A stretch of DNA of 15,856 bases, taken from IMG/VR virus record IMGVR_UViG_2529292836_000010. The stretch is one strand, 5' to 3'. The notes beneath the pieces were generated by a model, which made no database searches, was not told where the DNA came from, and saw only the letters and a program-made list of their open reading frames with translations. The stretch comes from a virus. Its lineage: Duplodnaviria > Heunggongvirae > Uroviricota > Caudoviricetes. This document shows positions 12,616-15,600 of this stretch, piece by piece. The translations under genes were made by a program, and so were the position numbers. How positions within the stretch are numbered: position 1 is the first letter of the stretch; every line of letters starts with the position of its first letter.

Positions 12616-15600
12616 ATGGGTAAAGGCAGCAGTAAGGGGCATACCCCGCGCGAAGCGAAGGACAACCTGAAGTCCACGCAGCTGCTGAGTGTGATCGATG
12701 CCATCAGCGAAGGGCCGGTTGAAGGTCCGGTGGATGGATTAAAAAGCGTGCTGCTGAACAGTACGCCGGTGCTGGACAGTGAGGGGAATACCAATATCTC
12801 CGGCGTCACGGTGGTGTTCCGGGCCGGTGAGCAGGAGCAGACACCGCCGGAGGGATTTGAATCCTCCGGCTCCGAGACGGTGCTGGGTACGGAAGTGAAA
12901 TACGACACGCCGATCACCCGGACCATCACGTCGGCAAACATCGACCGTCTGCGTTTTACCTTCGGCGTGCAGGCACTGGTGGAAACCACCTCAAAGGGGG
13001 ACAGGAATCCGTCGGAAGTCCGCCTGCTGGTTCAGATCCAGCGTAATGGTGGCTGGGTGACGGAAAAAGACATCACCATTAAGGGCAAAACCACCTCGCA
13101 GTATCTGGCCTCGGTGGTGGTGGGTAACCTGCCGCCGCGCCCGTTCAATATCGGATGCGCAGGATGACGCCGGACAGCACCACAGACCAGCTGCAGAACA
13201 AAACGCTCTGGTCGTCATACACCGAAATCATCGATGTGAAACAGGCTACCCGAACACGGCACTGGTCGGCGTCAGGTGGATCGGAGCAGTTCGGCAGCCA
13301 GCAGGTGAGCGTAATTATCATCTCGCGGGCGCATTCTGCAGGTGCCGTCGAACTATAACCCGCAGACGCGCAATACAGCGGTATCTGGGACGGAACGTTA
13401 ACCGCATACAGCAACAACATGGCCTGGTGTCTGTGGGATATGCTGACCCACCGCGCTACGGCATGGGGAAACGTCTTGGTGCGGCGGATGTGGACAAATG
13501 GGCGCTGTATGTCATCGGCCAGTACTGCGACCAGTCAGTGCCGGACGGCTTTGGCGGCACGGAGCCGCGCATCACCTGTAATGCGTACCTGACCACACAG
13601 CGCAAGGCGTGGGATGTGCTCAGTGATTTCTGCTCGGCGATGCGCTGTATGCCGGTATGGAACGGGCAGACGCTGACGTTCGTGCAGGACCGACCGTCGG
13701 ATAAGGTGTGGGCCTATAACCGCAGTAATGTGGTGATGCCGGATGATGGCGCGCCGTTCCGCTACAGCTTCAGCGCCCTGAAAGACCGCCATAATGCCGT
13801 TGAGGTGAACTGGATTGACCCGGATAACGGCTGGGAGACGGCGACAGAGCTTGTTGAAGATACGCAGGCCATTGCCCGTTACGGTCGTAACGTCACGAAG
13901 ATGGATGCCTTTGGCTGTACCAGCCGGGGGCAGGCACACCGCGCCGGGCTGTGGCTGATTAAAACAGAACTGCTGGAAACGCAGACCGTGGACTTCAGCG
14001 TGGGTGCGAAGGGCTTCGCCATGTACCGGGCGATGTCATTGAAATCTGCGATGATGACTATGCCGGTATCAGCACCGGCGGGCGCGTGCTGGCGGTAAAC
14101 AGCCAGACCCGGACGCTGACGCTCGACCGTGAAATCACGCTGCCATCTCCGGACCACGCTGATAAGCCTGGTTGACGGAGGGATCCGGTCAGCGTGGAGG
14201 TCAGTCCTCACCGACGGCGTGAAGGTGAAAGTGAGCCGGTTCCTGACGGCGTTGCGATACAGCGTGTGGGGGCTGAAGCTGCCGACGCTGCGCCAGCGCC
14301 TGTTCCGCTGGTGAGTATCCGTGAGAACGAGACGGACGTATGCCATCACGCGTGCAGCATGTACCGGAAAAGAAGCCATCGTGGATAACGGGGCGCACTT
14401 TGACGGACCAGAGCGGCACGGTGAATGGTGTCACGCCGCCAGCGTGCAGACTGACGCCGAAGTCACGCAGACAGCGGGGAATACAGGTGCTGGCGTGGGA
14501 CACCCGAAGGTGGTGAAGGGGTGAGCTTTGCTCGCTGACCGTCAGCGGAGACGGCAGTGAGCGCTGGTCAGCACGGCCCGGACGACGGAAACCACATACC
14601 GCTTCACGCAACTGGCGCTGGGGAACTACAGGCTGACAGTCCGGGCGGTAAATGCCTGGGGACAGCAGGGCGATCCGGCGTCGGTATCGTTCCGGATTGC
14701 CGCACCGGCAGCACCGTCGAGGATTGAGCTGACGCCGGGCTATTTTCAGATAACCGCCACGCCGCATCTTGCGTTTATGACCCGACGGTACAGTTTGAGT
14801 TCTGGTTCTCGGAAAAGCGGATTACCGATATCAGGCAGGTTGAAACCACAGCCCGCTATCTTGGTACGGCGCTGTACTGGATAGCCGCCAGTATCAATAT
14901 CAAACCGGGCCATGATTATTATTTTTACGTTCGCAGTGTGAACACCGTTGGCAAATCGGCATTCGTGGAGGCTGTCGGTCGGGCGAGCGATGATGCGGAA
15001 GGTTACCTGGATTTTTTCAAAGGAGAAATCGGGAAAACACATCTGGCCCAGGAGTTGTGGACGCAGATTGATAACGGTCAGCTTGCGCCTGACCTGGCTG
15101 AAATCAGGACGTCCATTACGGATGTCAGCAATGAAATCACGCAGACCGTCAATAAGAAACTGGAAGACCAGAGTGCGGCAATTCAGCAGATACAGAAGGT
15201 TCAGGTTGATACAAATAATAACCTGAACAGCATGTGGGCTGTGAAGCTGCAGCAGATGCAGGACGGACGCCTTTATATCGCGGGTATTGGTGCCGGTATT
15301 GAGAACACCCCTGACGGCATGCAGAGTCAGGTGCTGCTGGCGGCAGACAGGATTGCGATGATTAATCCTGCGAATGGCAACACAAAGCCGATGTTTGTTG
15401 GGCAGGGCGATCAGATATTCATGAACGACGTGTTCCTGAAACGCCTGACGGCTCCCACCATTACCAGCGGCGGTAATCCTCCGGTATTTTCCCTGACACC
15501 GGACGGGCGGCTGACGGCGAAAAATGCCGATATCAGCGGTAACGTGAATGCGAACTCCGGGACGCTCAACAACGTCACGATTAACGAGAACTGTCGGGTT

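Follow-up and report, generated by a model that had tools for sequence, protein, structure and literature searches.

In phage lambda and its prophage homologues, gene J lies after L, K and I and encodes the tail tip protein gpJ, with its full series of domains, in a continuous frame of about 1130-1160 codons. The J gene of the lambda-like prophage described here keeps that position and, once repaired, that domain series, but as deposited it has no continuous frame of such a length, and this absence is attributed here to an assembly artefact. The many frameshifts, the short ORFs and the setting in a prophage with an IS-cut terminase recall the frameshifted pseudogenes of decaying prophages. In contrast to those, the changes seen here are deletions only, they fall on paralog-variant sites, and they are absent from a near-identical complete genome.

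A closer likeness exists to collapsed-repeat mis-assembly, with which the locus shares a contig end bounded by a repeat and a chimeric consensus of two copies (Phillippy, Schatz and Pop 2008, PMC2397507). The co-assembly of near-identical repeat copies is a documented class of mis-assembly, in which the differences between the copies stack in single columns (PMC2397507). The signature described for that class is seen in the pile-up of reads, as correlated SNPs and excess depth, whereas here the signs are those left in the consensus. The symptom seen here is also an unusual one, in that variant columns are missing altogether, leaving one-base deletions instead of a wrong base.

The contig and its closest complete relative

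The window, meaning the whole stretch of DNA that was analysed, is the entire 15,856-bp contig AQEB01000008.1 of the draft assembly GCA_000354895.2 of E. coli 2731150 (ETEC). This strain is an ETEC isolate from Bangladesh (AQEB00000000; reads SRR446754; PMC5469772, Table S1), and the ETEC drafts of that study were assembled from 100-bp Illumina HiSeq 2000 reads with Celera Assembler (PMC5469772). The contig holds a lambda-like head and tail module comprising the portal, a protease/capsid fusion, tail genes, the tape measure, M, L, K, I and J. A lambda-type GGGAAAG slippery site was looked for in the G/T genes; none was found in the G gene, and the count of the motif is that expected by chance. 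Both ends of the contig lie within repeated DNA, ISCro1 at the start and J at the finish, and the latter end removes the final ~60 codons of J. The features that frame the contig are the following.

1-194, + strand: 3′ end of the ISCro1 (IS66-family) transposase gene, at the 5′ end of the contig; phage matches start at 224
217-300, + strand: 84-nt remnant of the terminase large-subunit gene, adjoining ISCro1, with the same junction in NCCP 13717
12616-15856, + strand: J, the lambda-type tail tip / host specificity gene, with 51 bases missing and 48 frame segments; the contig ends ~190 nt short of the stop

Because the terminase is cut down to this remnant beside ISCro1, the prophage has probably lost the ability to package, regardless of the state of J.

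The reference for the alignment, referred to as copy A, is a prophage of E. coli NCCP 13717, whose genome is complete (L001 1493-17409). The whole window is colinear with this interval at 99.27% identity, with 56 mismatches and 61 gap bases. Over window positions 1-11500, the IS junction included, the identity is 100.0%, which makes NCCP 13717 a suitable stand-in for the strain that was sequenced. At the same locus, K, I and a 1159-aa J are annotated in NCCP 13717, all of them intact. At each of the first three differences between the two sequences (3002, 6963 and 8602), all in the first 11.4 kb, the window has G and the reference T; the next difference, an A for G, is at 11443. The G-for-T differences could be real SNPs or could reflect a strand-specific error.

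Missing bases and the reading frame of J

All 61 gap bases in the alignment are bases absent from the window, and the number of insertions is 0. The alignment to L001 has no gaps in window positions 1-11716; the missing bases are distributed over K, I, the I-J spacer and J as listed here.

11717-11957, + strand: deletions in K, 5 missing bases, the last one in the K/I overlap
12301-12368, + strand: deletions in I, 4 missing bases
12565, + strand: deletion in the I-J spacer, 1 missing base
13151-13450, + strand: first J deletion patch, 11 single-base deletions, with 11 of 11 A/B-variable sites (sites that differ between copy A and the second copy, B, introduced below) dropped
14006, + strand: isolated J deletion of 1 base, A/B-variable once equivalent placements in the base run are allowed
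14148-14562, + strand: dense J deletion patch, 38 bases gone in 415 nt, with 30 of 31 A/B-variable sites dropped
14772, + strand: last J deletion, 1 base, A/B-variable; the frame returns to that of the J start codon

Ten missing bases lie upstream of J (in K, I and the I-J spacer) and 51 lie within it. The two dense J patches account for 49 deletions with zero substitutions relative to copy A, and the final 1,084 bases of the window are without indels. The earlier note had placed the damage at 13150-14765; this describes the breakage of J, but the onset of the damage is earlier, at 11717 in K. Homopolymer-type sequencing error was considered as a source of the missing bases and rejected, as the deleted bases come from runs of 1 nt in 56% of cases and of 2 nt in 34%, which resembles the background of 57% and 29%.

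Within J, the 51 missing bases occupy 47 places between 13151 and 14772 and divide the gene into 48 same-frame segments separated by 47 frame changes. The map derived from the alignment has frame 1 up to 13151, frame 0 at 13152-13244, then a scrambled patch, frame 0 at 13404-13450, frame 2 at 13451-14006 and again at 14563-14772, with the dense patch at 14148-14562, and frame 1 from 14773. All of the frame landmarks reported earlier are reproduced by this map, and the breakage they were taken to indicate is real; the count of 'at least eight' segments, however, was far too low. In the original frame of J the first stop is met at 13165, and there are 26 stops in total. With 48 segments and a stop this early, the earlier statement that a J of ~1130 aa cannot be encoded by the deposited sequence is borne out.

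With the 61 bases restored in silico, K has 248 codons, I has 216 and J has 1097 up to the contig end, all free of internal stops, and the corrected consensus thus has a single ORF from 12616 to the end of the window, the outcome that the earlier note had set against its own reading. Compared with copy A, the repaired translations show 2 (K), 0 (I) and 7 (J) residue differences, so that repaired J is 7 residues in 1097 away from an annotated gpJ. A Pfam scan of the repaired J finds FNIII-A_GpJ, Phage-tail_3, Ig_J, Ig_J_second, Phage_Tail_Tip and Ig_GpJ_C, in this order and all above their cut-offs. In the strain itself, this prophage most likely has an intact J that is almost the same as the one in NCCP 13717.

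Paralogous tail modules and the origin of the deletions

NCCP 13717 carries more than one such tail module, and the window was compared with two of them in a three-way alignment that allowed equivalent placements within base runs. Copy A is the L001 prophage and copy B the L004 prophage; both belong to NCCP 13717 and not to strain 2731150. The head genes of the copy B prophage differ from those of copy A. The L-K-I-J-lom modules of the two copies, however, are 94.8% identical over 6.2 kb, corresponding to the window from 10570 onward. J has matches at three places in the NCCP 13717 genome. The portion of the contig that falls in the repeat is given below.

10570-15856, + strand: part of the contig inside the shared L-K-I-J-lom module, A and B being 94.8% identical in NCCP 13717

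Every one of the 61 deletions lies inside this inter-prophage repeat (start 10570), with none in the 10.6 kb outside it. Furthermore, 52 of the 61 fall exactly on A/B-variable sites, for which the background rate is 7.3%; the binomial P is about 8e-50. In the patches 12301-12368, 13151-13450 and 14148-14562 combined, 45 of 46 A/B-variable sites have been dropped. The reading implied earlier, that the J gene itself is shattered, lacks support, since the missing bases are at paralog-variant sites and J is intact in the near-identical complete genome. Nine deletions lie away from A/B-variable sites. At four of these the position varies among other J alleles (L002 or L003), and five are found again in the contig L006 described below, which is suggestive of a third copy in the read mixture.

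The bases that were kept also carry the imprint of two copies. Over 5.3 kb, no more than 2 substitutions match neither copy. Up to about 11537 the alleles are those of A only, from 11699 to about 14830 each site carries the A allele, the B allele or no base, and afterwards the alleles are mostly A. Among the retained informative sites in 11600-14830 (n=106), 58 have the A allele and 48 the B allele, with 28 switches between them. The two are interleaved in 12369-13150 (20 A and 20 B alleles), while 13451-14147 and 14563-14830 have mostly B alleles, including 13 in a row at 13523-13909.

Copies A and B diverge by 7.5-17% at 10570-11170, where the window equals copy A only, and mixing begins where their divergence is <=3.5%, from about 11370. 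A simple divergence threshold for mixing was considered and is a partial explanation at most. The stretch 15109-15500 of J is diverged by 6-6.5% between A and B, like the dense patch, yet is clean copy A with no dropped bases. The choice of patches in which columns are lost does not follow from A/B divergence alone.

The shattered J is almost certainly a consensus artefact of a repeat that collapsed in a short-read draft, and not a pseudogene. Judged from these sequence comparisons, the phage itself does not have a broken J. Under this explanation, the L-K-I-J-lom module would be present in two or more lambdoid prophages of strain 2731150, in versions about 95% identical, as is seen for the copies in NCCP 13717. 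Where the modules are highly diverged (10570-11170), the copies would have been kept apart in the assembly; where they are similar enough, the 100-bp reads of both would have entered one multi-alignment at the contig end. The consensus at the variant columns would then have become the A base, the B base or no base, and each call of no base would have removed exactly one nucleotide per variant site and so scrambled the frame. We infer that a tied column was written as a gap, possibly when the mismatched bases were split over separate gapped columns, so that neither column had a majority.

The alternative that fares best accepts the deletions as artefactual and lays them over a J that is a natural recombinant of prophages A and B. 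Lambdoid tail genes are mosaic, and some of the allele runs in the window are long and uniform, such as the 13 B alleles at 13523-13909, so that this history has some small chance of being right. However, 28 switches over 106 retained sites are too fine-grained for conversion tracts, the alleles of 12369-13150 are interleaved, and the near-identical strain has no such mosaic. Recombination would in any case account for the retained alleles only and would not rescue the deletions as biology. For those, the collapsed repeat remains the preferred explanation.

Other records and deposited products

Searches of 5,426 complete E. coli genomes and 50,697 phage records for the same defect gave no match above 97.2% to the broken region. 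An exact 55-mer of the dense patch was found neither in the GTDB species-representative genomes nor in IMG/VR, which is of no weight here because the window comes from a non-representative draft. A comparable defect is present in AQAD01000092.1 (L006), a contig of E. coli P0302293.6, which runs from another prophage backbone into the same L-K-I-J module and, like the window, stops within J. Relative to copy A, the L, K and J genes at L006 8008-11850 show 81 deletions and 1 insertion, only 27 of which are common to the window. The two deletion sets overlap without being identical, which speaks against the inheritance of one group of mutations and in favour of a pipeline effect that recurs where the copies commonly vary. 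The 183-aa N-terminal J fragment of the window has a deposited counterpart in E. coli P0302293.6, and other P0302293 isolates appear in the same ETEC study (PMC5469772). On the evidence of these two contigs, the defect looks systematic for the Celera/Illumina pipeline.

These results also bear on the possibility that K, I and J are true pseudogenes, in which an IS-cut terminase produced a defective prophage whose tail genes then decayed by frameshifts. Selection on J could indeed be relaxed, as ISCro1 has reduced the terminase of NCCP 13717 to its 84-nt remnant and the window has the same junction. However, NCCP 13717, with that very IS insertion, keeps K, I and J intact, and the deletions of the window occur in no other genome among the 5,426 complete E. 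coli genomes. Decay should moreover leave substitutions, insertions and deletions throughout the element, whereas 0 indels are seen in 11.7 kb and 61 deletions with 0 insertions in 3.1 kb. The 49 deletions of the two dense J patches come with no substitution relative to copy A, and the concentration of 52 of the 61 on paralog-variant sites is not what decay would give. Pseudogene formation is therefore highly improbable here.

Random errors caused by low coverage or base quality near the contig end, unrelated to any second copy of the gene, are scarcely plausible as well. The errors do lie in the final 4.2 kb of the contig, whose end is in a repeat, but the last 1,084 bases are indel-free, and chance would not be expected to place 85% of the deletions on A/B-variable sites against a 7% background. 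Nor would random error give deletions only, or a mixture of A and B alleles with almost no private substitutions. That the deletions are real and arose in a heteroduplex between paralogous J modules, with mismatched pairs excised and not refilled to leave one-base deletions at the copy differences, is barely conceivable, since to our knowledge cellular removal of mismatched bases from a heteroduplex has no precedent as a source of such deletions, and their replication in another assembly makes the idea unnecessary.

With the collapsed repeat as the preferred explanation, the biological weight of the broken gene is nil, the J of the ETEC prophage being almost certainly ordinary and intact, and the matter becomes one of data hygiene. 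As the same defect occurs in a second assembly of the project, the tail genes of prophages in such Celera/Illumina ETEC drafts call for caution; before re-assembly they should be neither counted as pseudogenes nor drawn on to infer host range or pan-genomes. One-base deletions exactly on paralog-variant sites provide a simple diagnostic for this collapsed-repeat error. A further record is CP025902.1, 'Escherichia phage 500465-3' (L003), an unannotated 13.5-kb GenBank entry that is titled 'complete genome' and contains a tail module only. It shows 47 gap openings over 6.8 kb relative to the NCCP 13717 prophage, and may itself be a spurious mini-contig whose consensus suffers in a similar way.

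Fragments produced by the artefact have now spread through the protein databases. The 221-aa J fragment at 13433-14098 is EMW90668.1, identical to WP_001734468.1, and is also a UniRef100 entry named 'phage tail protein'. Upstream, K and I have been joined in one deposited product.

11277-12545, + strand: K/I fusion ORF of 422 aa (EMW90665.1), an artefact of 9 single-base deletions

The deletions behind this fused frame are those at 11717, 11751, 11759, 11890, 11957, 12301, 12309, 12332 and 12368. An exact search with the 422-aa product retrieved one record, contig AQEB01000008.1 itself. The product is annotated as a 'bacteriophage lambda tail assembly I family protein' and matches Prok-JAB, NLPC_P60 and Lambda_tail_I, but it is an artefact and not a natural fusion. 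Two antisense ORFs have also been deposited over the shattered stretch, at 14201-14611 and 14746-14913 on the minus strand (136 and 55 aa, with no Pfam hit), and these most likely exist only because the forward frame is broken.
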